The translations under genes were made by a program, and so were the position numbers. A stretch of DNA of 64,000 nucleotides from a virus. Position 1 is the stretch's first letter. The number at the start of each line of letters is the position of its first letter. Below the pieces are notes generated by a model. That model had not been told where the DNA came from. It searched no databases and worked only from the letters and a program-made list of their open reading frames with translations. Location: the UHGV virus genome UHGV-1366123, one strand, 5' to 3'. Below, piece after piece: positions 2,215 to 53,165 of the stretch.

Positions 2215-2655
2215 ATGGGATTTTTAAAGGCATTGAAGGATTTCGTGAACAAGAGAGGTGTTGTGAACACGAAAAGATCGTATGTTCACACAGATGATCT
2301 TCGTCTCAATCCTTCTTCTGAGCACCAAATATCAGAGGTCACAAAGTATGACATTGTACCTCATAACATGGTCGTGATAGCCACTCATGGAACTGGCTAC
2401 TTTGTACGTAGTGAAGATTGTCACACATACAAGGAAACAAACACGACGTGCTATGACTTCATACTTGAGAATCAATATGATGGATCGTTTGTGGATATCG
2501 TCATAAACTACGAAAGTGATGGAAATGGAGAAGGGAAGATCTGTAACATTTCCATGGCGTACGAATATGAAAACGACTCATCAATCGAAAACGTATCGAA
2601 AGATGAAGCGATAAAGTTTATGGCTTCATTCCTACAAAGAACTCTGCTATTATGA
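2215..2655 (+). CDS. hypothetical protein
   Basis: ORF only; its stop overlaps the first TATGACA iteron. Confidence 0.4.
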   Translation: MGFLKALKDFVNKRGVVNTKRSYVHTDDLRLNPSSEHQISEVTKYDIVPHNMVVIATHGTGYFVRSEDCHTYKETNTTCYDFILENQYDGSFVDIVINYESDGNGEGKICNISMAYEYENDSSIENVSKDEAIKFMASFLQRTLLL

Positions 2656-2835
2656 CAGAGTATGACACGAACGGATATGACAGACATATGACAAAGATGA
2701 CAGACGTATGACAAAGATGACAGACGTATGACAATTTTGTCATGACAACGATAATTTGGCACGATTTTTGTTATAATTATTATGAAAGATCGATCACTCG
2801 GATCAATCAACTTCAACCCAACATAAACAACAACA
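2651..2835 (+). promoter_or_regulatory. Iteron-plus-promoter cassette, copy A: about nine TGACA/TATGACA repeats at roughly 10-bp spacing, a TTGTCATGACAA palindrome, then a sigma70-like promoter (TTGGCA, ~16 nt, TATTAT)
   Basis: Direct reading; about 130 bp nearly identical to 49478-49641. Confidence 0.6.
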
Positions 2836-3516
2836 ATGACTATGACAACAACGGCAACCATACAAGACAAACTCGACAAGAACGTAGAGTTTGTTTGTTC
2901 ATTGTACAAGGCACGATTCGAAAAGTCGAAGGCTGTACAAGACGAATCGTTATACCACGTAACGTACACGATCACCTGTGAAGATTCCCACACTATCATC
3001 TTCCACGCAAACCTCTTTCCGAAAATGTTCGGGATGGTCATCAATGATCTACTGAATAATAATGAATCTTCAATGATCGTGGAGACACTTGAAAACGAAG
3101 ATGACTACGCAGAAAAAGTCGTGTCGACGCTTTCGGGTCTCATGTCTTACAAGAAATCAGAAGATGAAGAGGATCATTCTTCTGCAGACATGTACGACCT
3201 CGTAGGTTTTGCGGTTGGTGCAACAAAGAACGCCACGTGGGAACACAAATACGGAAAAGACGATATCAAGAAAACCTCATATGATCACTTCATCATCAAT
3301 ATCAACTATGAGGTGACAATGACTATCACACTTGAATATTGGGCAGATGGTCGTCCGTACGTTTCCGAAGTCGATATCCTCACGTTCACCGTACGTACTC
3401 TCAGTGGGACTTATGAGAAGAAGACACTCAACACTACGATATCGGACGCTATGCTTGAATCTGTCGATTTCATCAATCTTGCCAACAGGTTCTCGGGTGG
3501 TAGAATGATAAAATAG
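2836..3516 (+). CDS. hypothetical protein (downstream of iteron-promoter cassette A)
   Basis: ORF begins directly after the conserved leader; no motif recognised. Confidence 0.5.
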   Translation: MTMTTTATIQDKLDKNVEFVCSLYKARFEKSKAVQDESLYHVTYTITCEDSHTIIFHANLFPKMFGMVINDLLNNNESSMIVETLENEDDYAEKVVSTLSGLMSYKKSEDEEDHSSADMYDLVGFAVGATKNATWEHKYGKDDIKKTSYDHFIININYEVTMTITLEYWADGRPYVSEVDILTFTVRTLSGTYEKKTLNTTISDAMLESVDFINLANRFSGGRMIK

Positions 3517-3569
3517 AAACCTCCGTCTCCGTCGAGATCGACATTGACGTTTTTAAATAACACAAGCAA

Positions 3570-3613
3570 GTGAAACCTCGTGATAACAATTATCACGAGG
3601 TTTCACTTTTTTC
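3570..3613 (+). terminator. Rho-independent terminator (17-bp perfect stem GTGAAACCTCGTGATAA/TTATCACGAGGTTTCAC followed by TTTTTT)
   Basis: seen in sequence. Confidence 0.8.
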
Positions 3614-3673
3614 GAAAATATCAATATCAATATCGATCATCGATCATAATCATCATTATCAACATCCATCAAT

Positions 3674-4306
3674 ATGTTAGAGGTAGATTTAGCAAAGCTG
3701 GTAGTCTCTCATTTCTCCAAAGACTGTGAAGTGTATCAAGAAGTGAAAGCTTGTTCTTCACGTGTCATTGATATCGTGGTTCGTAGGAAATCGGGACTTA
3801 TGGCAATAGAAACCAAAGTGACGTTGAATATGAAACTTTGGGAACAGGCATTCAAGAACAAGAAGTGGTGTAATTACTCTTTCATCGCAATTCCCGAGAA
3901 CATCTATAGGAAATCTCGACGAAAGATGATCTCTGGTATATGCAGAGGTCTGAACATTGGTATCATTGTTGTAGATTTTGATGGAAATGTAAGCATTCAG
4001 TACAACCCTGCAGAAGAAATCCCCACACAAACCTTAAAGCTGTACGACGAACAGAAGTCGTTCGCTCTTGCAGGAAGTGGCGGTGTTCCATACTTTACAC
4101 CATTTAAGAAGACCGTCTCCGAGATCAAGAAGTATCTCGAAAAGCATGGGAAGTCAGAACTGGTAACCGTGATCAAGTCTATTGATCATCACTACAAAAC
4201 AGAGCAATCTGCAATACAGTCGATTCGAAATTATGCTTCCAAAGGTGTTTTAAAAGGTATTGTCTCGTCGGAAGACGGTAGGTATTTAGAGCTTTCCCAA
4301 CCTTAA
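3674..4306 (+). CDS. PD-(D/E)xK-fold nuclease-like protein
   Basis: Motif ...VIDIVV...(x13)...AIETKV fits the D-(x)n-E-x-K restriction-endonuclease-like core; C-terminal helical region. Confidence 0.45.
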   Translation: MLEVDLAKLVVSHFSKDCEVYQEVKACSSRVIDIVVRRKSGLMAIETKVTLNMKLWEQAFKNKKWCNYSFIAIPENIYRKSRRKMISGICRGLNIGIIVVDFDGNVSIQYNPAEEIPTQTLKLYDEQKSFALAGSGGVPYFTPFKKTVSEIKKYLEKHGKSELVTVIKSIDHHYKTEQSAIQSIRNYASKGVLKGIVSSEDGRYLELSQP

Positions 4307-4315: not shown

Positions 4316-4336
4316 CAATTCAAGAAAGACTATCCA

Positions 4337-6292
4337 ATGAGTAACAATAAAAATGTTGTAATCTTTGAGAACCATAGCGTTCCAATGAATCGTGTAAATG
4401 AATCGTTGGAAACCGCAAATGGGGTCAAAGATTACGTCTTTGAGGGTGTCTGTGCTACCTTTAATGGGAAAAACGAAAACGCAAGATTCTACGATAGAGA
4501 CGAGTATCTTCGTCATGTTGAATACCTTCAGAAGGAAATAGAACAGAACTCTCTGGCAGGATCTCTTGATCACCCAGATGGTGATGAAGAGGACGAAACG
4601 AAGGACATCTTCACCCCTAAAATGAAGGATCTGTCCCACCTCATCACAAAGCTTTGGTACAAGCCAGAGACTGATGAAGTCTGGATCAGAATCAAGCTTC
4701 TTGATACTGAATGGGGTAAGGATGCTAAGGCTTGTGTTGATGCTGGTATGCCACTGTTCATTAGCTCAAGATCATCTGGTTTCATTGACAAAGATGGGCG
4801 AGTATGGCTTGCACAAATTCACACATACGATATCGTCTACAGACCTGGGTTTGGTAACGCTAAACTTTCTCCAGTCCTCGAATCATTCGATGGAAAGAGC
4901 ACATATCTCAGCGTCTACTCACGCCAGAAGGAAGTAGACAGCACTGAATCTGAAAATACTAATATGGAAAAAAAGACTTATAAACTAAGCGAACTCACAA
5001 AGGAAGATGTTCTCTCGCTTCTGTTCAATCCTTCGGTGAAGGGAGCTTATGATTTCACGAGTGATGTGATCGAAAAACTCGACGAATTCTTCGATTATCC
5101 AAAGTTTATCGATTACTTCAATGAAAACGATCCAATGCTTTCTGACGCAATCGTGAACTACTTCATGGATTGTGGAAGATACGTTTATGATGATGGTACT
5201 TCTTGTGAAAATATCGCCGACTTCATAAAGATCGAAGTTGGTCGTGCATGTGACGACTATTTCGCAGAAATCAAGCAGACGTTCAAGGACAACTTCGGGG
5301 ATTTTGTTGAAGAAGGTGATGGAAAGGTAGACATCGATCGTTATGCTCGCATCATCGAAGAAAGCAAGAAATCAAAGAGAAATGTTCTGCGCAAGATCCA
5401 GTCGGTGAACGAATGCGAATCTGTGAAGTTGGTAGTTTCTGATTTCTGCAATGATCCTTCTTACGGATATGAAGATAAGTTCGAAGTCGCCAGAGAGTTC
5501 TTCGTCAAGTATCCCGAATATGGCGTAGTTGTCGATGATTGTTCTATGGAAGATGTTGTTCTTATCGCTTGTGATATGAAGAACGACTGCATCTATGACG
5601 AGATCGAGAACTCTGAAGTCAGAACCAAGAACGAAATCGCAGATGTCAAGCGTATTGTCAACAAGCTTTATGCTCAGATCAACCAAGACAGAGCAGAATA
5701 TAAGCAGACGATAAACTCACTCGTTCGAAATGTAAACCAAGTCCTCGAAGAGTACAAGGCAGATATCGAAAGTGCATTCATCACGATTGATGAAATCCGT
5801 GACGATGTTTACAACATAATCTCATGGATCGAATCAAACAACAGTGCACTTGACAAGTCAGAGGAAGTTGCACAGATCTCCAAGAAGCTGGATGATGCTA
5901 CCCAGAGCTTTAGTCAGAAGATTGGTGAAATCGAAGCATCACAGGATGCGGTAATGTCTCACGTAGACAATATCGAAAGTGATGTTTCCCTTATTGCCGA
6001 ATCTGCAAACAGAACGAAGCAGATGGTGAAGGAATCTGCAACGGCACGAAAGATTGAAGATGCGACAAGCATTGGTTCAAGAATCAACAACGTCATCGAG
6101 ACGATCAAGGCACAAACACCCGCTTTCCGTGTGTTTGAATCTGACGGTTCTCTCTACGTTCCTAACAGATTTGCAAAGAGTTATAACTCGCTCGACGAAG
6201 ACCAGAAGACTTTCGTCAAGTCTGTTTTTGAAACAAAGAATCCGAGATCTAAATCGGAATTCTTCTCCATTTGGGATTCTCTCGGTCTTTAA
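4337..6292 (+). CDS. Prohead core protease (T4 gp21-like) fused to an acidic coiled-coil scaffold-like C-terminal region
   Basis: N-terminal region with LDHPDG resembling the gp21 GHADHP active-site histidine block; long acidic/coiled-coil C-terminus; immediately upstream of the major capsid gene. Confidence 0.55.
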   Translation: MSNNKNVVIFENHSVPMNRVNESLETANGVKDYVFEGVCATFNGKNENARFYDRDEYLRHVEYLQKEIEQNSLAGSLDHPDGDEEDETKDIFTPKMKDLSHLITKLWYKPETDEVWIRIKLLDTEWGKDAKACVDAGMPLFISSRSSGFIDKDGRVWLAQIHTYDIVYRPGFGNAKLSPVLESFDGKSTYLSVYSRQKEVDSTESENTNMEKKTYKLSELTKEDVLSLLFNPSVKGAYDFTSDVIEKLDEFFDYPKFIDYFNENDPMLSDAIVNYFMDCGRYVYDDGTSCENIADFIKIEVGRACDDYFAEIKQTFKDNFGDFVEEGDGKVDIDRYARIIEESKKSKRNVLRKIQSVNECESVKLVVSDFCNDPSYGYEDKFEVAREFFVKYPEYGVVVDDCSMEDVVLIACDMKNDCIYDEIENSEVRTKNEIADVKRIVNKLYAQINQDRAEYKQTINSLVRNVNQVLEEYKADIESAFITIDEIRDDVYNIISWIESNNSALDKSEEVAQISKKLDDATQSFSQKIGEIEASQDAVMSHVDNIESDVSLIAESANRTKQMVKESATARKIEDATSIGSRINNVIETIKAQTPAFRVFESDGSLYVPNRFAKSYNSLDEDQKTFVKSVFETKNPRSKSEFFSIWDSLGL

Positions 6293-8105: not shown

Positions 8106-9875
8106 ATGGCAAAAACTATCTTTAACGGAAACGCAAAGAGTTTTTCAGAGATCAACCAATTCATAGGAAACTTTGATAAATCTGGTGGTCTGCTCTCTGA
8201 ACACACAACAGCAGAAATCCGAGAATGGGTTCACACAGGTTCTTATGTCCTCAACGCCTGCATATCGGGATCAATCCTCAAAGGTGTACCTTCTGGCAGA
8301 ATCATCACAATATCTGGTGATCCAAAGACTGGGAAATCCTTCGTTCTTCTGTCATGTATGGCACAGTTACAAAAGAAGGGTTATTTCTGCATCTACTTCG
8401 ACACCGAGAACGCCACAAGCTATGACAGATTCATAGCACAAGGTGTTGATCCTCAAGGCGTACGTGTGATTGTACCAGAGACTGTGGCAGACATCACTGT
8501 ACAGCTCACACAGCTCACACAATCACTGCTTGACACCAAGAAGGAATACGAGCAGAAGAACAAGAAGCTTTCCGAAGATGAAAAGCTCGAAATCCCAAAG
8601 GTTGCAGTTTTCATCGATTCACTTTCTGCACTGAACTCATCGAAGCAATTCTCCGATGCTCTAAGTGGTGAAATGAAGCAGGACATGGGGACAGTAGCCA
8701 AGGAAATCAAGCTTCTGTTCAACATGATCACACCTCGTCTTGGGAAGCTCGACATCCCAATGCTCTGTACTGCACATGAATACGAAGCCGATCAAGGGTA
8801 TCAGAAAGTTCGTGTAACAAGCGGTGGTAAAGGGATCACTTACATGGCATCTGTTCTTGTATCTCTTCGTAAGAAGTTCGACCGAGATGAAAACAAGCAG
8901 AAGATGGGTGTCATTGTAACGGCAGGGATCAACGAATCTCGATTCTCGATTCACAGACCAGTAGAGTTTTACATCTCCTTCACAAAGGGGCTTAATGCTT
9001 ACATGGGTTTGCAGGAATTCGTATCATGGAACATCTGTGGGATCGATCGAGGGAGAATGGTGGCGTATATCGACACTGCATCAGAGATATCGAAGAAGAT
9101 CGGTCTTGACAAAACGAAGACTTACTCGACGAAGGAAATAGAACGAGAACTTGCACAGGCAAAGAAGCAAACGTTCTATCAATCTCTGTCATACGACCTC
9201 TACAATGGTCATATTCGAATTGTATCGTCAGATAACACGATCGTACTGCCCGACCTCGTACGTATGATGGAGCAAGATGGGTTTGACTTCACAGAAGATC
9301 TCGAAACAAAGACGATCAAGGACAAACTGATCGTGCACGGCATCTATTCTGATGAAGCAATGGCGAAGATGATCTCGAGCTATATCGACAGCGGTGATGC
9401 TTATATGGTCGGGAATGTGAAACTCGACGTTGCAAAGAATCAGAAACTCAAGTTCAAGAAGTCGATCATCCAGTCGATAAATGATAATTCTTACGAGGAA
9501 AGACTCGTGGAAGTCGAATCTGAACAGACGCAGGAAATCAACGAAAAGAAGGATCAGAAATTCGTATTCACCGAGAAGTTCTTCACAGAAAGATTCGAAG
9601 ATGGAAAGCTTATCCCATCGTCTGTCGAGAAGGTCTGTTTCCCCACACCTACTGGGACTGAATGGGTAGTCCGACATCTCAACAAGTCCTTCAAGAATCT
9701 GGAAATCTTCAACAAACATGTCTTCACTGACGAAATCTTGAAAACGCTTGATGAGAAGGTCATGATTCCTCTGTTCTCTTACAGAGATAAAGAATATGAG
9801 GACATGGACGGTGATCTTTCAAACACCGATATTGAAGAACTTTCCGAAATGGACAAGATTATGAGCGGATTATGA
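8106..9875 (+). CDS. RecA-family recombinase (T4 UvsX-like) with ~200-aa C-terminal extension
   Basis: Walker A GDPKTGKS, Walker B VAVFIDSLSAL, RecA-core order as in UvsX; 589 aa against ~390 aa for UvsX. Confidence 0.7.
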   Translation: MAKTIFNGNAKSFSEINQFIGNFDKSGGLLSEHTTAEIREWVHTGSYVLNACISGSILKGVPSGRIITISGDPKTGKSFVLLSCMAQLQKKGYFCIYFDTENATSYDRFIAQGVDPQGVRVIVPETVADITVQLTQLTQSLLDTKKEYEQKNKKLSEDEKLEIPKVAVFIDSLSALNSSKQFSDALSGEMKQDMGTVAKEIKLLFNMITPRLGKLDIPMLCTAHEYEADQGYQKVRVTSGGKGITYMASVLVSLRKKFDRDENKQKMGVIVTAGINESRFSIHRPVEFYISFTKGLNAYMGLQEFVSWNICGIDRGRMVAYIDTASEISKKIGLDKTKTYSTKEIERELAQAKKQTFYQSLSYDLYNGHIRIVSSDNTIVLPDLVRMMEQDGFDFTEDLETKTIKDKLIVHGIYSDEAMAKMISSYIDSGDAYMVGNVKLDVAKNQKLKFKKSIIQSINDNSYEERLVEVESEQTQEINEKKDQKFVFTEKFFTERFEDGKLIPSSVEKVCFPTPTGTEWVVRHLNKSFKNLEIFNKHVFTDEILKTLDEKVMIPLFSYRDKEYEDMDGDLSNTDIEELSEMDKIMSGL

Positions 9876-10209: not shown

Positions 10210-11607
10210 ATGGCTGTTGGATTTGGTCAGAACTTTGAGAACATAGCTTACGTTTACATAAACTCACAACCTCACCTTTGGAAATCTGTTGATCATGAGT
10301 TCTTCAAATCTCCAACTCTGAAGGCACTATCAAAGCTCACCAAACAATTCTACGAAAGATTCCACGAGCAGATATTCTCTCCCGAAAATCCAAGTGTAGA
10401 GCAGATCGAATATCTCGTAATGGAAGACAAAAAGTCGTTTATGATTGACTTGAACATGTCAGAGGACGACAATGCGAAGACTTTCATTGCGAACGCATCA
10501 TACATCATCAAGACAAACATAAAAGCATTCTCTGAGGAATGGCTTGACGAGACTGTTGGTGCATGGATAATGTGGCAAAACAACCAGCGAGCATATAAAG
10601 AATCAATCTCTTATATGCAGACACAGAATATCACACCCGAGAATGTAAAGGAAGTGATCTCCAAAGCACGAGAGATTGTGGTCAGAGGTTCATCTCTATC
10701 GTTTGGTGATGAGGAGGTCTTTGACTTCTATGATCCTCAATCTCACAAGCAGATTTCCGTGGAAGACTACATCGACACTGGCTACGAGATGCTCAACCAG
10801 ATGCTCACGGAAGACAGACATAACGGATTCATACCTGGTACTCTCAACATGTTCATGGGTTCTACAAACTCTGGGAAATCGGTGATCCTTGGTAATCTTG
10901 CACTCAACATTTCAAGATCGGGTAAAAACGTGTTGTTTGTATCTGTGGAAATGTCAATCCCAAGAACTTTCCGACGAATCGGCTCTAACGCTTTTGACAT
11001 TCCAATATCGGAATATGACACGTTCTCAAACGACGACGCACTTCTATCAGAATCTATACAAAAGTTCAGAGCAAAGAACATGAACATTGGTGTACCACCA
11101 GGCAAGTTCCTCGCCTTGAAGTTCCCAAAGACTGGTGTCTCAAACATTTATGGAACTGCAAAGCGACTGGAAGAGAAGCATGGGATAAAGTGGCATGCAA
11201 TCGTAATTGACTATTTCACGGAACTACAAAACGATCACGGCACGGCACAAGATAAAACGTATCAATACCACAAGCAAAATGCTGATGATCTCTACCAAAT
11301 GGCTTCAGAGACGAATTGGTGTGTGATAACTGCCCATCAGTTAAATCGAGGTGCTTTGAACATGTCCGATATGACACTTTCATCTGTTGCTGAATCTTAC
11401 GGTATTGTTTACAGATGCGATAGTGTTATCGGGATGATTGCCACTGAGAAGATGCAGGTCGAACACACGATGTACATGAAGAATCTGAAATGTCGTGATT
11501 CGAAATACAAGAACTTCTTCGCAAAGTTTGATACAGAATTCTCAAAGATGAGAATCATAGAAACTGGGGAACTCATAAGCCCAGAAGATTATCAGATCTT
11601 CACATAG
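10210..11607 (+). CDS. Replicative DnaB/gp41-family helicase
   Basis: C-terminal RecA-like domain with Walker A GSTNSGKS and Walker B IVIDYF; start moved to ATG 10210 because the annotated GTG start lies inside a hairpin. Confidence 0.65.
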   Translation: MAVGFGQNFENIAYVYINSQPHLWKSVDHEFFKSPTLKALSKLTKQFYERFHEQIFSPENPSVEQIEYLVMEDKKSFMIDLNMSEDDNAKTFIANASYIIKTNIKAFSEEWLDETVGAWIMWQNNQRAYKESISYMQTQNITPENVKEVISKAREIVVRGSSLSFGDEEVFDFYDPQSHKQISVEDYIDTGYEMLNQMLTEDRHNGFIPGTLNMFMGSTNSGKSVILGNLALNISRSGKNVLFVSVEMSIPRTFRRIGSNAFDIPISEYDTFSNDDALLSESIQKFRAKNMNIGVPPGKFLALKFPKTGVSNIYGTAKRLEEKHGIKWHAIVIDYFTELQNDHGTAQDKTYQYHKQNADDLYQMASETNWCVITAHQLNRGALNMSDMTLSSVAESYGIVYRCDSVIGMIATEKMQVEHTMYMKNLKCRDSKYKNFFAKFDTEFSKMRIIETGELISPEDYQIFT

Positions 11608-11705
11608 GTCTCCGAACTCAAGGAAGGTACTTTCCTTGCACTCTGATGGTATTGGTGGTACTTACATAGCATCGAAGGCAAGAAAGCCCAAGGAAAAGGC
11701 AAAGA

Positions 11706-17563: not shown

Positions 17564-17708
17564 CAACAACAAAAAGTGGTATCACATACGATGTTGTCCC
17601 TCATTGATTCGAACAAAGACTAACAGAGCCAAGGTCTGTTGTGCTACCATTACACCAAAGGACAATTCGAATGTCCCTCCGCCGTCTACTACGTTCAAGG
17701 GACTGATG

Positions 17709-17783
17709 GGTGATGGATGGGACTTGAACCCACAACCAATAGAACCACAACCTATTGCTCTAACCAATTTGAGCTACCATCAC
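17709..17783 (-). tRNA. tRNA-His (anticodon GTG)
   Basis: Hand fold: acceptor GTGATGG/CCATCAC, D stem GCTC/GAGC, anticodon stem ATAGG/TCTAT, loop TTGTGGT, T arm GTGGG-TTCAAGT-CCCAT. Confidence 0.7.
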
Positions 17784-17871
17784 AGACGTAGTGAGAGGTT
17801 TCGCTCCTCTGAATATCTTCATCAAGAAGCACTACGTTTGATAAAAAGGTGGCGAGTTGTCCATACTCTTC

Positions 17872-17944
17872 TCAGTCTGGTAGGATTCGAACCTACATCA
17901 TCTAAGAACCACCTTATAGGAATTTCCGATTATTCTACAGACTG
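17872..17944 (-). tRNA. tRNA-like sequence with canonical acceptor, D and T arms but a non-canonical anticodon arm (probable pseudo-tRNA)
   Basis: T arm GTAGG-TTCGAAT-CCTAC, acceptor CAGTCTG/CAGACTG, D stem GAAT/ATTC; no 5-bp stem with 7-nt loop can be drawn in the anticodon region. Confidence 0.4.
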
Positions 17945-18310
17945 AACAACAAACGATAATGAAGATTCAAAATGCTGAATATCTGCAAATCGGAAACTAT
18001 GATTGATTCATCTTTTAGACAGCTATGGACAATACCGAATGGGGTATCAAACCAGTAACTTGAAGATTTTTATAGATTGCTGTAAGTCCATAATCTAAAA
18101 GACGTTTTTTCTATCTTTTTCGTCGAAATCTTTACTGCAGACGTTATCTATGAGCCAATTATGAAGATTCTGTTTGCTGTGTGTCTACAGATCCCGACAT
18201 TAAGAATTCTTTAAAAGAACGCTTTGTGAATGATGACTTCCCAGTGGACTACGTAGTTTTAGGAGCAATTGCATAGTAATTTGCTGTGAATCCAATAGAT
18301 CATCATTTTG

Positions 18311-18395
18311 AGGAAGAACAGGGATTCGAACCCTGGGAACCTTGCAGTTCAACGGTTTTCAAGACCGTCGCAATCGACCACTCTGCCACTCTTCC
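18311..18395 (-). tRNA. tRNA-Ser (anticodon TGA), class II with long variable arm
   Basis: Hand fold: acceptor GGAAGAG/TTCTTCC, anticodon stem ACGGT/ACCGT, loop CTTGAAA, long variable arm, T arm AGGG-TTCGAAT-CCCT. Confidence 0.7.
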
Positions 18396-18740
18396 AATAT
18401 TGAGAAAACGATGGAAATCAGACTTACACTATAATCCCGAAACGTCACGATCTCGATCATCCAACCCCGTGGAAATCAGTACCACTTAGAGATTTAGCTT
18501 TAGAAAGTTGGACGACTTTCATCGATTTTCTCAAGCACCTTTTTTGTTGACAACCAGCAACTTAGGAGATAACACCCATTAGAGCAATGACCTTCCCATA
18601 TTCATAGGTCTTCTCTGGATAGAGTTGATGTTCAATATTGCGATGCCTTCTCAAAATCCCAACCCTATGAAAGACTTCTCAAAGACAACCGTTGTATATC
18701 GTTTCAAACGGTACTAAGTCGCTTTTTCTTTTTATTTTTG

Positions 18741-18810
18741 CGAAGAGAAGAGGGATCGAACCTCTCTGATCTTTATGGCTAGATCATCAGACCTTTTTCT
18801 GAATCTCTTC
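18741..18810 (-). tRNA. Atypical tRNA-like: canonical acceptor, D and T arms but an 8-nt anticodon loop AGCCATAA (contains CAU) on a 6-bp stem and a 1-nt variable region
   Basis: Acceptor GAAGAGA/TCTCTTC, T arm AGAGG-TTCGATC-CCTCT; anticodon arm TGATCT-AGCCATAA-AGATCA. Confidence 0.4.
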
Positions 18811-18853
18811 ATAAGTCTTATTATTTGATCTTCTTATCGGTTTCGTTTCTTTT

Positions 18854-19321
18854 TTATGTCCGTACAATATAAGCATCATAACCATACTGCAAACCATCAA
18901 AATAAGAGCTTATGTATTCATAACAACCTCGTAATGTTAGATATGCGTAATAGTCTGATCTTGAATTGTAGTTGCCATTTTGATAGCTATAACAAGCATT
19001 GGAGAAGTTGCTTATAAGCCGTTCCAATTTGGCAATGGTTTCATCAACCTCTTCAGACGACTTCCAACGTAAGTGACTTAGTTTCACTCCTATAATGAAA
19101 TCATCGATTTCTCGTTGATTTCTTTTTATCGTGAGCTTAAACTCATAGGGGCTGTCATAAGGATCGTCTTTGATATGTTCACGTGTCTTTGTTGTTGTTA
19201 TTTCAACTTCAAACATCGGTTCTCCATCGTAATATATCGTCTGTACAGATTGGAATATCTTGATGTTTGTCTTGTACACACCTCTATCAAGACCTTCATA
19301 AAACTCTGTAGGGCTAATCAT
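18854..19321 (-). CDS. hypothetical protein
   Basis: ORF only; Tyr-rich C-terminus. Confidence 0.45.
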   Translation of the reverse strand: MISPTEFYEGLDRGVYKTNIKIFQSVQTIYYDGEPMFEVEITTTKTREHIKDDPYDSPYEFKLTIKRNQREIDDFIIGVKLSHLRWKSSEEVDETIAKLERLISNFSNACYSYQNGNYNSRSDYYAYLTLRGCYEYISSYFDGLQYGYDAYIVRT

Positions 19322-19340
19322 TGATCTCTGTTTGATCAGT

Positions 19341-20294
19341 TCATTTAGTCGTAGTTTGTTTCTTCTTGATGATCATTCTAAAATAAGTCTGCTCGCCATT
19401 CACAGACAAATATTTCCCGTCGTTTCCCCTTCTGGATGTCACAATCTCAAATTGTTGAGGATTGAATTTATACAAGAATGTTATCGGAACCCCCATGCAA
19501 CCATTGTAATCTCGTGGTATATCCTTGACCCTATCGACATTTATACCATCATAATTGTCGTATTTGGGATATTCATGTTCGTGTCCATAGTAGTTTTTTG
19601 TAAGCGGAATATCTTCATGTCGCATAGAGTGGTTCAAATTCGTAAACCACAGACAATTATTGGTGGGCGTGATCATATTACCAGATTCGTCCATCCATGT
19701 TTTTTTCATGTAGGGTTCATAATGGGCTGGTATGATAAACCCAGAAAATTCGTTCCCACGATTTACACCAAGCCATGCCTTACCATCTTGAACGGATTTG
19801 AAGATTTCTTTGTTGGTGATAGAATTGATATTCCCAATAATGAGAAAGAGCTTATCGTATCTGATCAGTTGTGTCATATATTCACGGAACAACGAAAATG
19901 GTGGATTTGTAACAACTATGTCAGATTGTTCCAGCAAATCGATACTTTCTTGACTACGAAAGTCGCCATCACCATTGAAGTAAACAACATCAGCTGTCTT
20001 TGGATCTGTATCGACGAGTTCTGTCCCTGTGTATTCAAAGAAAAAACCACGACTGTTTTCCTTATAACAAGATGCAATCACCTTCCGAAGTCCCAATTCT
20101 TTGAAATTGGAAACGAAGTATTTGAAAAAGTTACTCGTCAGAGGATCATCACAATTGCAATACACAACTTTCCCTTTAAAATGGCTTTCATAATGTCGCA
20201 ATTCTCTTTCGATATCAATAAGTTGCGTATAGAACTCGTCGTTCTTTTGCTTTCTAGCATTACGAAGTAACTTGCTGGTTGTTGCCCTTGCCAT
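19341..20294 (-). CDS. N6-adenine DNA methyltransferase, EcoRI-methylase family (orphan)
   Basis: N-terminus MARATTSKLL..KNDEFYTQ..VVYCNCDDP..SNFFKYF..LGL.K.IASCY closely parallels M.EcoRI; motif IV IVVTNPPF present; no restriction enzyme gene adjacent. Confidence 0.8.
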   Translation of the reverse strand: MARATTSKLLRNARKQKNDEFYTQLIDIERELRHYESHFKGKVVYCNCDDPLTSNFFKYFVSNFKELGLRKVIASCYKENSRGFFFEYTGTELVDTDPKTADVVYFNGDGDFRSQESIDLLEQSDIVVTNPPFSLFREYMTQLIRYDKLFLIIGNINSITNKEIFKSVQDGKAWLGVNRGNEFSGFIIPAHYEPYMKKTWMDESGNMITPTNNCLWFTNLNHSMRHEDIPLTKNYYGHEHEYPKYDNYDGINVDRVKDIPRDYNGCMGVPITFLYKFNPQQFEIVTSRRGNDGKYLSVNGEQTYFRMIIKKKQTTTK

Positions 20295-20419
20295 ATTTCC
20301 GTCTTTTAATATAAATCTTCAGAATAGAGAATCGTCTTATCTTTTACATCTTCTATTTGATCAGCTTCTTTAGCTATCTTACAAACTTCATACCTATCAA
20401 CAAATATCACTTTAGAAGT

Positions 20420-20595
20420 GTAGAAGCCTTATCGTATGTGAAAAATCTGCGTTTTATCCAGTTCTCACTTCTTGTTTCAACCTGCCATTACTTTTTAGGA
20501 ACACGAGGTTCGGTCATCCATAAGAGGGCAGTCCGCAAGCGTAAATTCGGTGCTACGAACACCTACTCGATTTTTTATATGTTAGACAGTTTGAA
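20420..20595 (-). ncRNA. Putative TnpB omega-RNA (reRNA) scaffold region at and beyond the 3' end of tnpB
   Basis: Inferred from IS200/IS605 biology; locally GC-rich, structured segment (GGAACACGAGGTTCGGTCATCC...GGTGCTACGAACACC) immediately 3' of the tnpB stop. Confidence 0.35.
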
Positions 20596-21724
20596 GTTTT
20601 CTTTGTCCTTCAATGAGAATGTTCTTCGAAGCGTTTATATCTCTGTCGTGATATTCACCACATTCGGGACAAGTCCAAAACCTATCACCGAGTTTCAAGT
20701 CTTTCTTCTTGTAACCACAACATAAACAAGTCTTTGAACTTGGATAGAACCTATTGATAAGAACAACTCGCTTATCATTCATAAGAGCCTTATATTGCAA
20801 TATCGACTTGAACCGATAAAATCCAGACTCTTGGATAGCATTCGCAAGATAACGATTTCCAAGCATCCCTTTAATATTCAAGTCTTCCATGAACACCACG
20901 TCGTATGATTTGAGGATCTCGTTCACAACTGAGTGGATGTAGTTCTCTTTCTTGTTCGTTATATTCGCAATCACTTTTGCAAGTCTGATTCTCTGTTTGT
21001 TCCTATTGTTTGAACCTTTGACCTTTCTGGATAGTTGACGATGAAGTCTTGTGATCTTCTTTTCCTCCTTCTTGAAGAAGTGTTTGTTTTCAAACACAAA
21101 TCCATCAGAGGTTATGACGAAATCTTTCACACCAAGATCAATACCGACTTGCTTGTTGGTCTTTTCAAACTTTACAAATTCTGCTTCGGGAATGTCGATA
21201 AGGATTGATAAGAAGAAATTCCCACTCTTGGTTTTCGAGAGAGTTGCACTTCTTATGTTATCTTTGTACTTCTGTAAGCGTTTGTGATACAAGTCAGAAC
21301 AACGGAATCTGAGTTTTTGAAGAGAAGTGATTAGTGTTATATGTTTCGTTTCGAAAGTGTTCCTCTTTGAAATAGCATTACGAGGAAACAATGCTGATTG
21401 TTTGTCTTTCTTTGATTTAAACTTTGGAAAGCCTTTATGATGATTGAAGAAGTTTTGATAAGCACCGACCATCTGTTTGATTGCTTGGTTCATCACCTTT
21501 GTGTTCTGTTCTCTCAACCAAGCATATTGTTCATCTTTCAACAATGATCCGTGGAAATATTTCGATAGATCGCTTTCGCTTAGGTTTGTCTTGTCCGTTT
21601 CATAAGCCTTTTGTTTTCTATCGAGCATGTGATTATAGACAAAACGATAAGCACCAAGAACCTTGTTGAGTTCTTGTTCCTGCGCTTTGTTTGGATATAA
21701 CCTTATTTTAATCGCTCTAAACAT
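20582..21724 (-). mobile_element. tnpB: TnpB (IS200/IS605 OrfB-family RNA-guided nuclease), intact, no tnpA present
   Basis: N-terminal IRLYPNKAQ..YRFVYNH; RuvC-I GIDLGVKD, RuvC-II FMEDLNIKGM, zinc finger CLCCG...CPECG, RuvC-III DRDINASKNIL; all catalytic residues present. Confidence 0.8.
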
Positions 21725-21743
21725 GCCTATGATTGATTATCCA

Positions 21744-21968
21744 TTACAGATCTTTTTCTTCTGCTAATATCCTATCGAATTCCAATCTCAGACAGCGAAG
21801 ATAGCCGTTCATGTATTCATACTTAGTCTGCTGGAAGAACTTCTCATCTGGTGTCAACTTCTCAAACTCTAAAGATTGGATGAAATCGAGTTGCTTCAAA
21901 GTGACTTCTTTGAACCTTTCATAGCTCTTTAAAGCTTTCCGTCTCCTCTGTCCAAATTCTTCAAACAT
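21744..21968 (-). CDS. hypothetical protein
   Basis: ORF only. Confidence 0.4.
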   Translation of the reverse strand: MFEEFGQRRRKALKSYERFKEVTLKQLDFIQSLEFEKLTPDEKFFQQTKYEYMNGYLRCLRLEFDRILAEEKDL

Positions 21969-21974
21969 AACCTA

Positions 21975-22187
21975 TTAATCATTAGAGATTTTTGTAACAG
22001 CACCGAACTTCTTCAACTTTTCTGCAAGATCAAGGACATCTTGATCGTTCTCTGATTCATATAGAACTGGTTCATTCTGACGGACAAGTTCCATGGCATA
22101 ACTCAAAGAAATCTTTCGATAATCCATCAAGCACTTTATAACTTGAAGAGGTGCTTGACCTTTGTCTATGAGAATCAGCTTATACAT
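21975..22187 (-). CDS. Ribosomal protein bL12 (L7/L12) C-terminal-domain-like protein, stand-alone 70 aa
   Basis: LILIDKGQAPLQVIKCLMDYRKISLSYAMELVRQNEPVLYESENDQDVLDLAEKLKKFGAVTKI aligns with the bL12 CTD (..[47 protein letters not shown]). Confidence 0.6.
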   Translation of the reverse strand: MYKLILIDKGQAPLQVIKCLMDYRKISLSYAMELVRQNEPVLYESENDQDVLDLAEKLKKFGAVTKISND

Positions 22188-22212
22188 TTTGCTTGTTTTT
22201 ATTTTTAAAAAG

Positions 22213-22279
22213 TGCTTCGTGAAGGATTCGAACCTTCATCAATTCCGTCGAATCGCTCTGGCCATTGAGCTAACGAAGC
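22213..22279 (-). tRNA. Short (67-nt) tRNA-like element: perfect acceptor, D and T arms, anticodon arm collapsed (pseudo-tRNA)
   Basis: Acceptor GCTTCGT/ACGAAGC, D arm GCTC-AATGGCCA-GAGC, T arm GAAGG-TTCGAAT-CCTTC; only 17 nt between D and T arms. Confidence 0.35.
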
Positions 22280-22481
22280 CCTCATAGATTCCCAGTTTTA
22301 ACGGAAACTGTGGCGGACTATGAACCCCTGCGTGAAACCGCACTTGAACTTCAACCAAGATCTGTACGTACTTTAACCCAAGTGATAGGTTTTGAACCCT
22401 AATTGAAGCAGAACTATTCCCATTCTGAGAGGGGACGTTATCAACTTAAAAATTGGTGAAACGTCCTAAAGTCAACATCGG

Positions 22482-22554
22482 TACGCCATGAAGGATTTGA
22501 ACCTTCGACCGCCAAGGTATAAGCTTGGAACTCTAACCACTGAGTTAATGGCGC
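22482..22554 (-). tRNA. tRNA-Ile (anticodon TAT, decodes AUA)
   Basis: Acceptor GCGCCAT/ATGGCGT, D arm ACTC-AGTGGTT-AGAGT, anticodon stem CCAAG/CTTGG, loop CTTATAC, T arm GAAGG-TTCAAAT-CCTTC. Confidence 0.65.
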
Positions 22555-22589
22555 ATTTTCATCTTTCTATTTTCTTATTGATGGATCTT

Positions 22590-23135
22590 TTAGAACGTTT
22601 TACTGTATCCAAAAACGTCGGAAAGATCTCTCAGAGAATCATTCATAAGTATCTCGTGGACATTGTTGTAAACCGTACCAAGAAGATTCGATCCTCTCCA
22701 TTTCGATTTATCAACTATACGAATATCAGTTTCAGAAAGTCCACATCCCCAGATTTTGTCATAAGGACTGGCTTCTACAAACTCATAACCTTCATTAATT
22801 AGTTGTGTGTAGTGATCTCTGATTTTCTTTGAAGATCTTAGTTTCATCAGTACCACAAAGAGCATCACATCATATCTGACAGATGACCAACGACCATCAT
22901 TGTAGTTTCGAACAAGTCTTCCAAGCTCTTTACAAAAACGTGGGTTATCAGAATTCTTGAGGATCTGCATTGCGATATCTTCGTCTCCGAAGTACTTTGC
23001 TTTCAAGAACATGAACAATGATTCACCGCAATGGAAAACAAGACCATTATAGTTGATCTCGGATTTATAGAAGTTGCTGTAAAAATCCGAACCAGTGAAG
23101 AAAGTCACCAATTTATGATCTTTGAAAATCTTCAT
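22590..23135 (-). CDS. NADAR-domain protein (YbiA/DUF1768 family; ADP-ribose N-glycosidase-like)
   Basis: FFTGSDFYSNFY ... GESLFMFLKAKYF ... RWSSVRYDVMLFVVLMKLRS ... LINEGYEFVEASPYDKIWGCG matches YbiA blocks (F-SNF, SEHYFQAQKF, W..V...VM...L..KF, LL.T....LVE.S..D..WG.G). Confidence 0.75.
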   Translation of the reverse strand: MKIFKDHKLVTFFTGSDFYSNFYKSEINYNGLVFHCGESLFMFLKAKYFGDEDIAMQILKNSDNPRFCKELGRLVRNYNDGRWSSVRYDVMLFVVLMKLRSSKKIRDHYTQLINEGYEFVEASPYDKIWGCGLSETDIRIVDKSKWRGSNLLGTVYNNVHEILMNDSLRDLSDVFGYSKTF

Positions 23136-23157
23136 CGTGTCTCTTGTTCTTTTTTTG

Positions 23158-23230
23158 TGATTCCAGTGGGGCTTGAACCCACAACCCCTGCATTAAAAGT
23201 GCAGTGCTCTACCTGTTGAGCTATGAAATC
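23158..23230 (-). tRNA. tRNA-Lys (anticodon TTT)
   Basis: Acceptor GATTTCA/TGGAATC, D arm GCTC-AACAGGTA-GAGC, anticodon stem CTGCA/TGCAG, loop CTTTTAA, T arm GTGGG-TTCAAGC-CCCAC. Confidence 0.7.
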
Positions 23231-23520: not shown

Positions 23521-23573
23521 GCATATTGAAGAAATGTGTTAAAGTGTATTATCAACTGATACGCTTTAAAGGA

Positions 23574-23657
23574 AGGTATTTTCCTTGCGCTCTGAGAGGT
23601 TCAAGAATATGAAAATAGCGGAGAATAGATCAGAGCGCAAGGAAAGTACCAAGGAAA
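23574..23657. repeat. MITE-like hairpin element copy (TIRs GGAAGGTATTTTCCTTGCGCTCTGA / TCAGAGCGCAAGGAAAGTACC; loop carries GAAAATAGCGGAG core)
   Basis: seen in sequence. Confidence 0.7.
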
Positions 23658-25017: not shown

Positions 25018-25112
25018 TTACAGGAAGGTACTTTCCTTGCGCTCTGATCCATTTTCCGCTATTTCTATCCCACCGAATGTCTTCGAGGACAAGGAAAGTA
25101 CCTTCCTTTAAT
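25018..25112. repeat. MITE-like hairpin element copy with its loop inverted relative to the 23574 and 23867 copies
   Basis: TTACAGGAAGGTACTTTCCTTGCGCTCTGA ... TTCCGCTATTTC ... CAAGGAAAGTACCTTCCTTTAA. Confidence 0.7.
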
Positions 25113-37921: not shown

Positions 37922-38383
37922 ATGGCGAAGAAGGTTGTAGAGAACATGCTGTGGTCTACAGAACGTGTAGAGAAGCTCATACAGGAATTCAACGACAAGG
38001 GTGTACTTCCCAAGAAGAATCCGTTTTATAGTGGTGATGTTCGCTTGAGGAAACCACGTATCAACTTCTCATACACAGAGGATGAACTTCTTGAACTTGC
38101 AAAGGTTCAAGATTCTGTCTTGTACTTCTCAGAAAATCTGGCCAAGGTAAAAACTGATGATGGTATCAAGCATATCAAACTGAGACCATATCAGACAAGA
38201 ATCATCCAACAGCTTCAGTATTACAGACACAACGTCATCCTTGCTTCACGTCAGATTGGGAAAAGTAAAGGCTGGGGATCTGTTATAAATGGACTCGAAG
38301 GTGACTTCAAGATTTCTGACCTCTTCCCTCGAACACTCATCAATAGACTAAGATCAAAGCTGTATTCGACGATCTATGGGTAA
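37922..38383 (+). pseudogene. Large terminase (T4 gp17-like) N-terminal fragment, truncated just after the Walker A P-loop
   Basis: SVLYFSENLAKVKTDDGIKHIKLRPYQTRIIQQL..VILASRQIGKS aligns with gp17 (DIVYFAETY...VQLRDYQRDMLKIM..VCNLSRQLGKT); the ORF ends 30 codons later, directly abutting a MITE-like hairpin element. Confidence 0.6.
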
Positions 38384-38390
38384 ACGACTT

Positions 38391-38483
38391 CACGGAAGGC
38401 ACTTTCCTTGCGCTCTGAAGATTTCGGTGTTGTTCTCATAGCTCTTTGATATACAGAGCGCAAGGAAAGCACCTCGTCTTTAT
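38391..38483. repeat. MITE-like hairpin element copy abutting the truncated terminase ORF
   Basis: CACGGAAGGCACTTTCCTTGCGCTCTGA ... CAGAGCGCAAGGAAAGCACCTCGTCTTTAT. Confidence 0.7.
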
Positions 38484-38497
38484 CCGAAGATATATTC

Positions 38498-38551
38498 GAA
38501 AACCGATTGGGGTCATCTGATGCTATTTTCAGATGACCCCAATCGGTTTTC
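38498..38551. terminator. Bidirectional terminator (22-bp stem GAAAACCGATTGGGGTCATCTGA/TCAGATGACCCCAATCGGTTTTC)
   Basis: seen in sequence between convergent genes. Confidence 0.75.
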
Positions 38552-38567
38552 TTATTTCTCTTTCCTT

Positions 38568-39374
38568 TTAAGGAGAAACTTTACACGTGCCACTGAGCAC
38601 GGACTGTTCCATAGATTGAACAAGCGTTGATGCACTTGGATCGATCGGCAGTTTAGTGCCTATTATCTGCGCCAGACCCTTCAGAAGAATCATAAGTGGT
38701 TCACCATTCACCATTTTGTAGGAAGGATTCGCACCTGCCATGTACTCAGAACCATTGTCGTGTATCTTCTGTGAGTTCACGGTGACGCTATTCTCTGAAG
38801 AGATGTTGATCTGATTCTTGGAGACAATGTCGATATCGTCACCTCTGAGTTCTATAACTGCAGATCCTCCACGATGCGTGATCACTATCGACCCATCTGG
38901 CTTGATGTTTACGTTTGATTCGTTATAATCGATCATCATACCTTTCTTTTTACTGTAGAAGATCTTCATCTTCTCATCAGTATCGAACAGAAGTGAATGG
39001 AAGTTCTCGGGATCATTCTTGATCTCCTGCCGAAGTTCCTCGTCTAACCATTCAATAGAAAAGTAACGAGGGTGATAAATGTCGTCCTTGAACACCACTC
39101 TTACAACACTTCCCACCTTTGGTGCAGAATACGCACCTGCACCACTTTTGCTACCAAATGAAAGGGTTTCTATTGGATAAGCGTATGGAAGATCTTCATC
39201 TGGTATGCTTCCGAGATCTTTGGAATCGAATACACCAAAGACCCTAATCTTCACTCTGCCTGGGTCTTTGTCTGTTCCCTCAAGAGAGACGATTTCTCCA
39301 AGATGACTGCATGACATCATCTCCTTGAGTTCACCAAAAAGGTCTCTGTGGATTATTTCACTTCTATTAGACAT
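38568..39374 (-). CDS. Baseplate central spike/hub protein (gp5 / Phage_base_V-like OB-fold N-terminus)
   Basis: PKVGSVVRVVFKDDIYHPRYFSIEW matches the G-x-V-V-x-V-x-F-x-D-G/D-x-x-x-P-x-W/Y OB-domain motif of gpV/gp5. Confidence 0.5.
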   Translation of the reverse strand: MSNRSEIIHRDLFGELKEMMSCSHLGEIVSLEGTDKDPGRVKIRVFGVFDSKDLGSIPDEDLPYAYPIETLSFGSKSGAGAYSAPKVGSVVRVVFKDDIYHPRYFSIEWLDEELRQEIKNDPENFHSLLFDTDEKMKIFYSKKKGMMIDYNESNVNIKPDGSIVITHRGGSAVIELRGDDIDIVSKNQINISSENSVTVNSQKIHDNGSEYMAGANPSYKMVNGEPLMILLKGLAQIIGTKLPIDPSASTLVQSMEQSVLSGTCKVSP

Positions 39375-53097: not shown

Positions 53098-53165
53098 CCT
53101 ACTTTCATCCCAAAAGATTGATCAGAGAGCAAGGAAAGTACCTTCCTGTGATAAGGAAAGTATTC
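53095..53165. repeat. MITE-like hairpin element, degenerate or half copy (TCAGAGAGCAAGGAAAGTACCTTCC)
   Basis: seen in sequence. Confidence 0.5.

Follow-up and report, generated by a model that had tools for sequence, protein, structure and literature searches.

How can a T4-type large terminase (TerL) be made from a gene that stops shortly after the P-loop? The question is raised by an open reading frame (ORF) of 153 codons on the plus strand (37922-38383) of the 64,000-nucleotide stretch of phage DNA that was analysed here in full and is called the window below. A preliminary description of this stretch had noted the truncation and a hairpin element at the break, and had proposed either a split gene with its remainder elsewhere or a pseudogene. 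In the reading that we favor, to which we give a probability of about 0.82, the ORF is the first of three TerL genes, and its product would be joined by trans-splicing, through the intein halves IntN and IntC, to the product of a distant second gene.

A terminase ORF with TerL similarity up to the Walker A lysine

The ORF is present as described. T4 gp17 (PDB 2o0h/3cpe) can be aligned to residues 18-115 with an E value of 4e-6, and SRQIGKS of the ORF falls opposite SRQLGKT of gp17, as had been proposed. The PHROG TerL families match as well (phrog_5989, 1e-15, ORF residues 36-115, profile positions 91-170). This likeness ends at the GK of the Walker A motif, after which 39 codons without TerL similarity lead to the stop; a stop behind the P-loop had been rightly noted, its distance from the lysine being 39 codons and not about 30. 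In agreement with the earlier statement that the remainder is not encoded downstream, no further part of TerL was found in the 64-kb window by a PHROG scan of the ten longest ORFs, by tblastn, or by HMM search. The tblastn search with the closest TerL of a cultured phage, that of Flavobacterium phage MaF61, returned 37940-38266 only, and an HMM of the TerL C-part had no match in the window. Neither an IntC-TerL piece nor an endonuclease was found adjoining terL-N in the window, and this phage was not found among the GenBank phages.

Homologues retrieved from 5.8 billion proteins are all 109-161 aa long and share 52-94% identity with the ORF. Four of them (153-161 aa) cover at least 98% of the query and end at the same point, and the length and frame of the tail are kept down to 52% identity. 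In assemblies from ENA, Logan, and JGI, the identical 153-aa gene was called on 10 or more independent contigs. Measured against relatives (one pair has a saturated dS), dN/dS amounts to 0.01-0.08 in the N-extein and to 0.09-0.28 in the 39 codons of the tail. Of the best 150 representative clusters, 80 have a short TerL-N form, and the first residue of the tail in these 80 is Cys in 67 and Ser in 7.

In the alignment, the tail fits the family pattern [C/S]1..I[GS]xL[YF]..[RK]xxLY, and Ser1 is followed by the block-A hairpin GSVINGLEGDFKISDLF. The tail of the relative P0004 (52% identity) scores 17 bits against the intein-family profile described below; the window's IntN taken alone gave no significant score against that profile. 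Because of its position, its alignment to the family pattern, and the scoring tail of the 52%-identical relative, the 39-residue tail was assigned as the IntN of an atypically split intein. What had been described as a loss of similarity before a premature stop is, as judged from these sequence features, predicted to be functional intein sequence.

Table 1. Position of the terL pieces and of the neighboring features (window coordinates unless another contig is named)
Feature	Position	Strand	Remarks
TerL N-extein	37922..38263	+	114 codons, N-terminal subdomain of T4-type large terminase, last residues ..ILASRQIGK (Walker A Lys)
IntN (predicted)	38264..38383	+	39 codons plus stop, SKGWGSVINGLEGDFKISDLFPRTLINRLRSKLYSTIYG; Ser1, block-A beta-hairpin, C-terminal helix; Cys absent
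Dispersed intergenic hairpin repeat	38394..38474	+	core GGAAGGYAYTTTCCTTGCNCTCTGA at 38394-38417; arms 38397-38422 and 38449-38474
Repeat-core copy	11622-11645	+	15 nt after helicase stop codon, between convergent genes
Repeat-core copy	23571-23594	+	
Repeat-core copy	25023-25046	+	
Repeat-core copy	53123-53146	-	
Long perfect hairpin with T-runs	38487..38562	.	between convergent genes; inverted repeat, 34-nt arms
Baseplate hub/gp5-like gene	38568..39374	-	phrog_430, 1.9e-11; convergent with terL-N, outside terL
Nuclease ORF	L091 11134-11952, equal to IMGVR_UViG_3300009964_000001 ~104,290-105,108		same place in 12 further clade contigs

The partner gene in near-identical genomes

The preliminary description had suggested locating the rest of terL in the full genome. 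This search was run in IMG/VR contigs of ~145-150 kb, whose protein is 96-97% identical to that of the window, by walking the contigs and by a scan with the hairpin repeat (Table 1) as probe, and it located both a partner gene and a nuclease ORF. The partner ORF, M(R/Q)YILDKL...VFDLSVVDETLSYFSDGILSHN continued at the predicted junction by SVMSGIFIAWYILTNYDK..., was found in these near-identical relatives, called the clade in the following, and lies outside the 64-kb window. It consists of a 143-aa IntC that ends in GILSHN and of 217 residues of the ATPase domain that begin with Ser+1. The IntC carries block B (SVNH), block F (VFDLSVVDETLSYFSDG, with VFDLS), and block G (ILSHN).

From residue 144 onward, the partner matches a TerL-C profile that was built from the sequence after GK, and it does so from profile position 1. 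On phrog_5989, it covers positions 170-330 and is thereby colinear with the N piece, which covers positions 91-170. As is expected of an intein inserted in frame, removal of the intervening sequence gives a colinear TerL (..SRQIGK + SVMSG..) with a P-loop of normal length. The predicted join GK/SVMSGIFIAWY has the same length as the corresponding part of uninterrupted TerLs, for example GKSITSSIILVWY (compare GKSITSS).

On single contigs, N and C pieces share a strand. They are separated by 53,147 bp on IMGVR_UViG_3300006251_000001, by 56,262 bp on 3300045988_118132, and, if one counts across the contig ends, by ~58 kb on 3300009964_000001. The partner is thus located 53-58 kb upstream of terL-N in these related ~150-kb contigs, which supports the earlier idea of a split gene with its remainder elsewhere, and by the same distances it would sit ~15-20 kb before the start of the window. 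No N piece was found within 6-10 kb of the partner on the clade contigs. Omega is 0.03-0.07 for the IntC, 0.01-0.02 for the ATPase extein, and 0.02-0.04 for the nuclease ORF.

When the protein database was searched with the TerL-C profile, unrelated full-length TerLs drowned out the partner. A query consisting of IntC and extein gave no match in that database, though IMG/VR and metagenome contigs contain the DNA; the gene may be missing from protein catalogues through mis-calling or because it was not called at all. Upstream of the three terL pieces, no enrichment of a common late-promoter-like motif was observed. As a separate observation, a near-perfect hairpin with 21-nt arms and a T-run (L091 9939-9982) is situated ~20 nt upstream of the IntC start codon. 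It contains an upstream in-frame ATG that some ORF callers would choose as start; in the relatives, this ATG is not kept in frame.

A family of inteins at the same terminase site

In a metagenome scan, ~25 other loci proved to have a homologous element at this TerL site. In their layouts, N and C ORFs either abut (L105, L106, L115, L122), are contiguous as a single intein (L114), or are separated by an endonuclease gene of ~1.1 kb in the manner of a fractured gene (L006, L108, L116). The endonuclease ORFs of these fractured relatives are Vsr/DUF559-like and 358-366 aa long. The first clue was LR756500.1 (L006), an uncultured 462-kb phage in which TerL-N ends in ARQTGK/C... and is followed by a 366-aa ORF (REase_MTES_1575, E = 2.5e-5; DUF559, E = 0.0026; both under the curated Pfam cut-offs). 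The next ORF has 628 aa, of which the first ~146 end in ...NGILSSQ/T and are followed by the TerL remainder. The earlier suggestion of a homing endonuclease between the pieces therefore holds for more distant relatives, but not for this clade, where none is found at either piece.

Further ORFs were noted around two of these loci. Directly after the fractured terL of LR756500.1 there is a second terminase-ATPase-like ORF (4333-5145, minus strand, 270 aa) with the P-loop SSRQMGIS, and a 615-aa ORF on the same strand (2392-4239) is endonuclease-like as read by eye alone. In the 52%-identical relative (L003), a 317-aa ORF (10483-11436) overlaps the stop of TerL-N+IntN and encodes ROS/MucR-type zinc fingers (Pfam, 9.7e-9). 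A nuclease domain was not recognizable in this ORF, which may be a decayed homing endonuclease, and no TerL-C was found within 2 kb of TerL-N in the same relative.

A family profile was made from 18 fused IntN+IntC sequences. Against the PDB, it matches VidaL (1.2e-11), gp41-1 (8e-11), CatC (6dsl_B, the AceL/GOS-TerL consensus; 2e-9), and NrdJ-1 (4e-5), and Pfam Intein_splicing matches 15 of the 18 members. When its own sequence was left out, the clade's IntC scored 63 bits (E = 1.6e-21) against the profile of the 17 other members. On its own, the clade sequence gives weak matches to Pfam Intein_splicing (E = 0.042, under the gathering score) and to VidaL (E = 0.015). The top PDB match for the IntN profile is CatN (6dsl_A), which is not significant (E = 0.89). 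In a pairwise comparison, the clade's IntC matches CatC, an engineered consensus, in blocks F and G alone.

All class-1 residues are present, namely Ser1, the block-B His (SVNH), the block-F Asp (VFDLS), SHN, and Ser+1. In the family alignment, no variation is seen at the His and the Asp or at Leu-Ser within GILSHN, and almost none at the terminal Asn (one member has Gln). The His-Arg of block F (NHRYY) is likewise kept by nearly all members, but this clade has LS in its place. Outside the clade, every locus recovered has Cys1/Thr+1, whereas the clade itself has Ser1/Ser+1 and lacks Cys in both IntN and IntC. No other inteins were found with Pfam in the large ORFs of the window, including UvsX and the helicase.

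N and C pieces are encoded by separate ORFs on 14 contigs, the IntN being short and without block B and the IntC longer than 100 aa. Since block B resides in the C piece and the IntN has just 39 aa, the split is of the atypical kind. An extra helix is found on both sides of the split point, at the end of the IntN and at the start of the IntC, and in the contiguous intein of L114 the two are united in a single helical insert. The site of this insert is also the position of the endonuclease gene in the fractured loci.

A separate nuclease gene

The nuclease domain is encoded by a separate ORF of 272 aa, which is in another frame and starts ~50 nt after the stop of the ATPase ORF. On the TerL-C profile, the ATPase part stops at position ~212 and the nuclease ORF starts at ~215. 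All 13 clade contigs that span the junction have this break, and a fourteenth contig ends inside the ATPase part. The spacer between the two ORFs is AT-rich and highly conserved. Here a T4-type terminase is naturally interrupted at its ATPase-nuclease hinge, and no intein is involved. A translational bypass or frameshift joining the two ORFs (TTG-TGA ... TTG, in one contig) was considered and rejected because the "landing" TTG is not conserved, non-triplet indels precede a conserved ATG, and there is no overlap between the frames.

The family-B DNA polymerase (PolB) of the clade likewise consists of two genes, which lie ~24 kb apart on the same 150-kb contig (L091 12639-14135 and L064 18845-20047). 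The N part (498 aa) comprises the exonuclease domain and positions 26-142 of Pfam DNA_pol_B. The C part (400 aa) comprises DNA_pol_B from position 156 on, including KVALNSIYG, and is located upstream of the N part, as is the case for terL. By eye, no intein motifs were seen at the ends of the split PolB pieces.

Hairpins and neighboring features of the window

The hairpins after the stop codon and the minus-strand baseplate gene behind them had been described correctly, as the inverted repeats, the terminator scan, and phrog_430 confirm. Both hairpins together fold with -85.5 kcal/mol (z = -11). The first of them had been described as a MITE-like element at the break. It is a copy of a dispersed repeat with a conserved core of 24-25 nt, whose 24-nt core has five copies in the window versus 0 expected by chance. 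All five are intergenic, and two directly follow a stop codon between convergent genes. Of the terminal inverted repeats that a MITE-like element would have, the copies share the 5' arm of the hairpin, and the 3' arm is conserved in some of them alone. In IMG/VR, the core has 17 exact matches, all on nine contigs of related phages, of which six are ~145-150 kb long and have terL pieces and three are short and have DNA that matches the window. No copy was found within 10 kb of the IntC gene. From this it follows that the repeat is an intergenic element of a general kind, which neither caused nor marks the break; as no copy is near the partner, a role as the recombination site that separated the halves was rejected. 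Our guess is that it is probably a 3' stem-loop, a terminator, or an RNA-stability element. The second hairpin, with a stem of 20-23 bp at 38501-38548 and a T-run (20 pairs in the terminator scan), is probably a strong bidirectional intrinsic terminator.

Two further features of the window were noted. Between ~23,100 and 25,900, a stretch of ~2.8 kb is ORF-poor and repeat-rich, with several repeats of 100-200 nt, and is adjoined by 7 tRNA genes (17,594-23,230, minus strand). In the UvsX/RecA-like protein (8106-9875, 589 aa), Pfam RecA covers residues 30-126 only and the PHROG match ends at ~residue 442, followed by a long unexplained C-terminal extension.

Proposed mechanism and alternative explanations

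The anatomy of the genes, the conserved motifs and catalytic residues, the homology to inteins, the linkage on single contigs, and the purifying selection are direct observations. In the proposed mechanism, gene 1 would provide TerL from its N-terminus to the Walker A Lys (114 residues), fused to the 39-residue IntN with Ser1. Gene 2 would provide the 143-residue IntC and, behind it, the other 217 residues of the ATPase domain, of which Ser+1 is the first, and gene 3, located 50 nt downstream of gene 2, would provide the nuclease domain as a polypeptide of its own. IntN and IntC would associate, probably aided by the helices at the IntN end and the IntC start, and the joined halves would complete a HINT fold. 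Class-1 protein trans-splicing via oxyester intermediates could then take place, starting with an N-O acyl shift at Ser1, followed by transesterification to Ser+1, cyclization of the terminal Asn, and an O-N shift. The predicted product is a single ATPase-domain chain with an intact P-loop (..SRQIGK-SVMSG..), to which the nuclease-domain protein would then bind non-covalently. That splicing occurs, and the way in which the nuclease piece is assembled, is what we infer here. Ser1/Ser+1 chemistry is intrinsically slower, which counts against the proposed splicing. The complete picture of a T4-type motor made from three chains, with a Cys-free, atypically split Ser1/Ser+1 intein that is divided between genes more than 50 kb apart and a nuclease that is never covalently attached, is put forward tentatively, as we judge its chances to fall somewhat short of even.

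The main rival to trans-splicing is that the intein halves are degenerate, no longer splice, and serve as a dimerization module that holds the TerL pieces together non-covalently. Such a state would agree with the fact that the clade has lost the block-F His/Arg, the helices at the IntN end and the IntC start could bind by themselves, and between ATPase and nuclease the phage already lives with a non-covalent break. However, the residues with a direct role in class-1 splicing are all present (Ser1, block-B His, block-F Asp, penultimate His, terminal Asn, and Ser+1), the IntC is strongly constrained (omega about 0.05), and a P-loop with ~180 foreign residues between its Lys and its Ser is unlikely to bind ATP. 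We thus consider degenerate halves to be unlikely. Even less probable is that the N-fragment acts alone, perhaps as a regulatory subunit that binds TerS or the portal, its IntN-like tail being a plain C-terminus. Such a role may be suspected because the fragment is well conserved and because the extreme N-terminus of T4 gp17 lies outside the catalytic core, but its TerL part ends in the middle of the Walker A motif, and the Ser and the remaining P-loop strand that it lacks come from a gene whose first part is the complementary intein half.

The pseudogene reading of the preliminary description, that is, a decaying terL remnant next to a full-length functional copy elsewhere, is suggested by the short ORF that ends soon after the P-loop and by the absence of the TerL remainder from the window. 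It is contradicted by the 153-161-aa form of the gene, whose length and frame are kept at 52-94% identity, and by dN/dS values that are far below 1 even with saturated dS. Furthermore, in the related 145-150-kb genomes, of which ~97% was covered, the only other TerL-like sequence that turned up lacks exactly the terL-N part. The repeats and strong hairpins directly behind the stop codon could point to an artefact of assembly or sequencing (a chimeric join, for instance, or a frameshift) at 38380-38560; against it stand the presence of the identical gene together with its neighbors on at least 10 independent contigs (ENA, Logan, and JGI) and a partner that begins exactly at the break of this gene. 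The conserved length, the many contigs, and the low dN/dS therefore rule out both, with a very slight probability left for the pseudogene and a practically negligible one for the artefact.

Relation to known systems

Halves of an essential gene that lie far apart on one genome and are joined by trans-splicing are known from the cyanobacterial DnaE inteins of Ssp and Npu, and the terL halves of this clade are likewise far apart. The DnaE inteins differ in their canonical split, with an IntN of about 100-120 aa and an IntC of about 35 aa, in their Cys nucleophiles, and in being encoded by a cellular genome.

The closest comparison is with the AceL, GOS, and Cat split inteins (Thiel 2014; Bachmann & Mootz 2015; Stevens 2018), as summarized in PMC11766414 and PMC13014065, which give a split of 25/104 aa for AceL-TerL and of 37/115 aa for GOS-TerL. 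The intein described here resembles both in its phage large terminase host, in its short IntN (39 aa), and in its long IntC (143 aa) with blocks B, F, and G. It differs in its Ser1/Ser+1 nucleophiles, where PMC11766414 gives Cys1/Cys+1 for AceL and Ser1/Cys+1 for GOS. Both its IntN and its IntC exceed those of Cat by one helix where the intein is split.

In the fractured genes reported by Dassa et al. (2009), a phage gene is broken at the intein and the intein halves are found on the pieces, a gp17-like terminase being among the genes listed (PMC2677866). The relatives of the intein show this very layout with a Vsr/DUF559-like ORF between the halves, whereas in this clade neither piece has an endonuclease and the pieces, instead of flanking one ORF, are 53-58 kb apart. 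As cited in PMC2677866, gp43 DNA polymerase, an essential T4-type protein, is translated as two separate pieces in the T4-related Aeromonas phage 25, and no intein is present. The ATPase/nuclease break and the split PolB of the clade can be compared with this case, which concerns another gene and in which the pieces flank a homing-endonuclease cassette.

The insertion site has a precedent in TerL1-a of mycobacteriophages, which is inserted between the invariant Walker A Lys and the Ser/Thr that acts as +1 nucleophile (PMC5050341). The P-loop had thus been rightly called an intein hotspot, the Lys-Ser/Thr junction being a classic TerL insertion site. The site is the same here; TerL1-a inteins, however, are contiguous and are found in terminase_1-type proteins. 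With regard to the chemistry, the PolB16 OarG intein is a natural, atypically split intein that uses Ser1/Ser+1 oxyester chemistry (PMC10189870), and it is stated to be the only known natural cysteine-less atypically split intein (PMC13014065). It differs from the intein of this clade in its PolB host, its IntN of 15 aa, its unrelated sequence, and its two non-catalytic Cys (PMC10189870), and by eye no clear [KR]-H "NX" motif was seen in the clade's intein. As a 39/143-aa intein that is Cys-free and has Ser1/Ser+1, the latter is therefore a candidate for a second natural cysteine-less atypically split intein.

Implications

Phage-terminase split inteins, their atypical split site, and the insertion at the Lys-Ser/Thr junction of the P-loop are already known, and with the majority of short TerL-N forms among the closest relatives (80/150), this kind of intein is also common. 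Particular to the clade are the dispersed halves, the Cys-free Ser1/Ser+1 constitution, and the additional non-intein break at the ATPase-nuclease hinge. For annotation, this means that short "truncated terminase" ORFs of T4-like metagenomic phages are usually split-intein halves and not pseudogenes. [quoted passage not shown]

For phage biology, the clade shows a change from fractured genes, whose halves enclose an endonuclease, to pieces that are fully dispersed. Moreover, the detached nuclease domain bears on the coupling of the two domains of the gp17-type motor; if the proposed three-chain terminase is true, the covalent hinge of current gp17 motor models would be dispensable.
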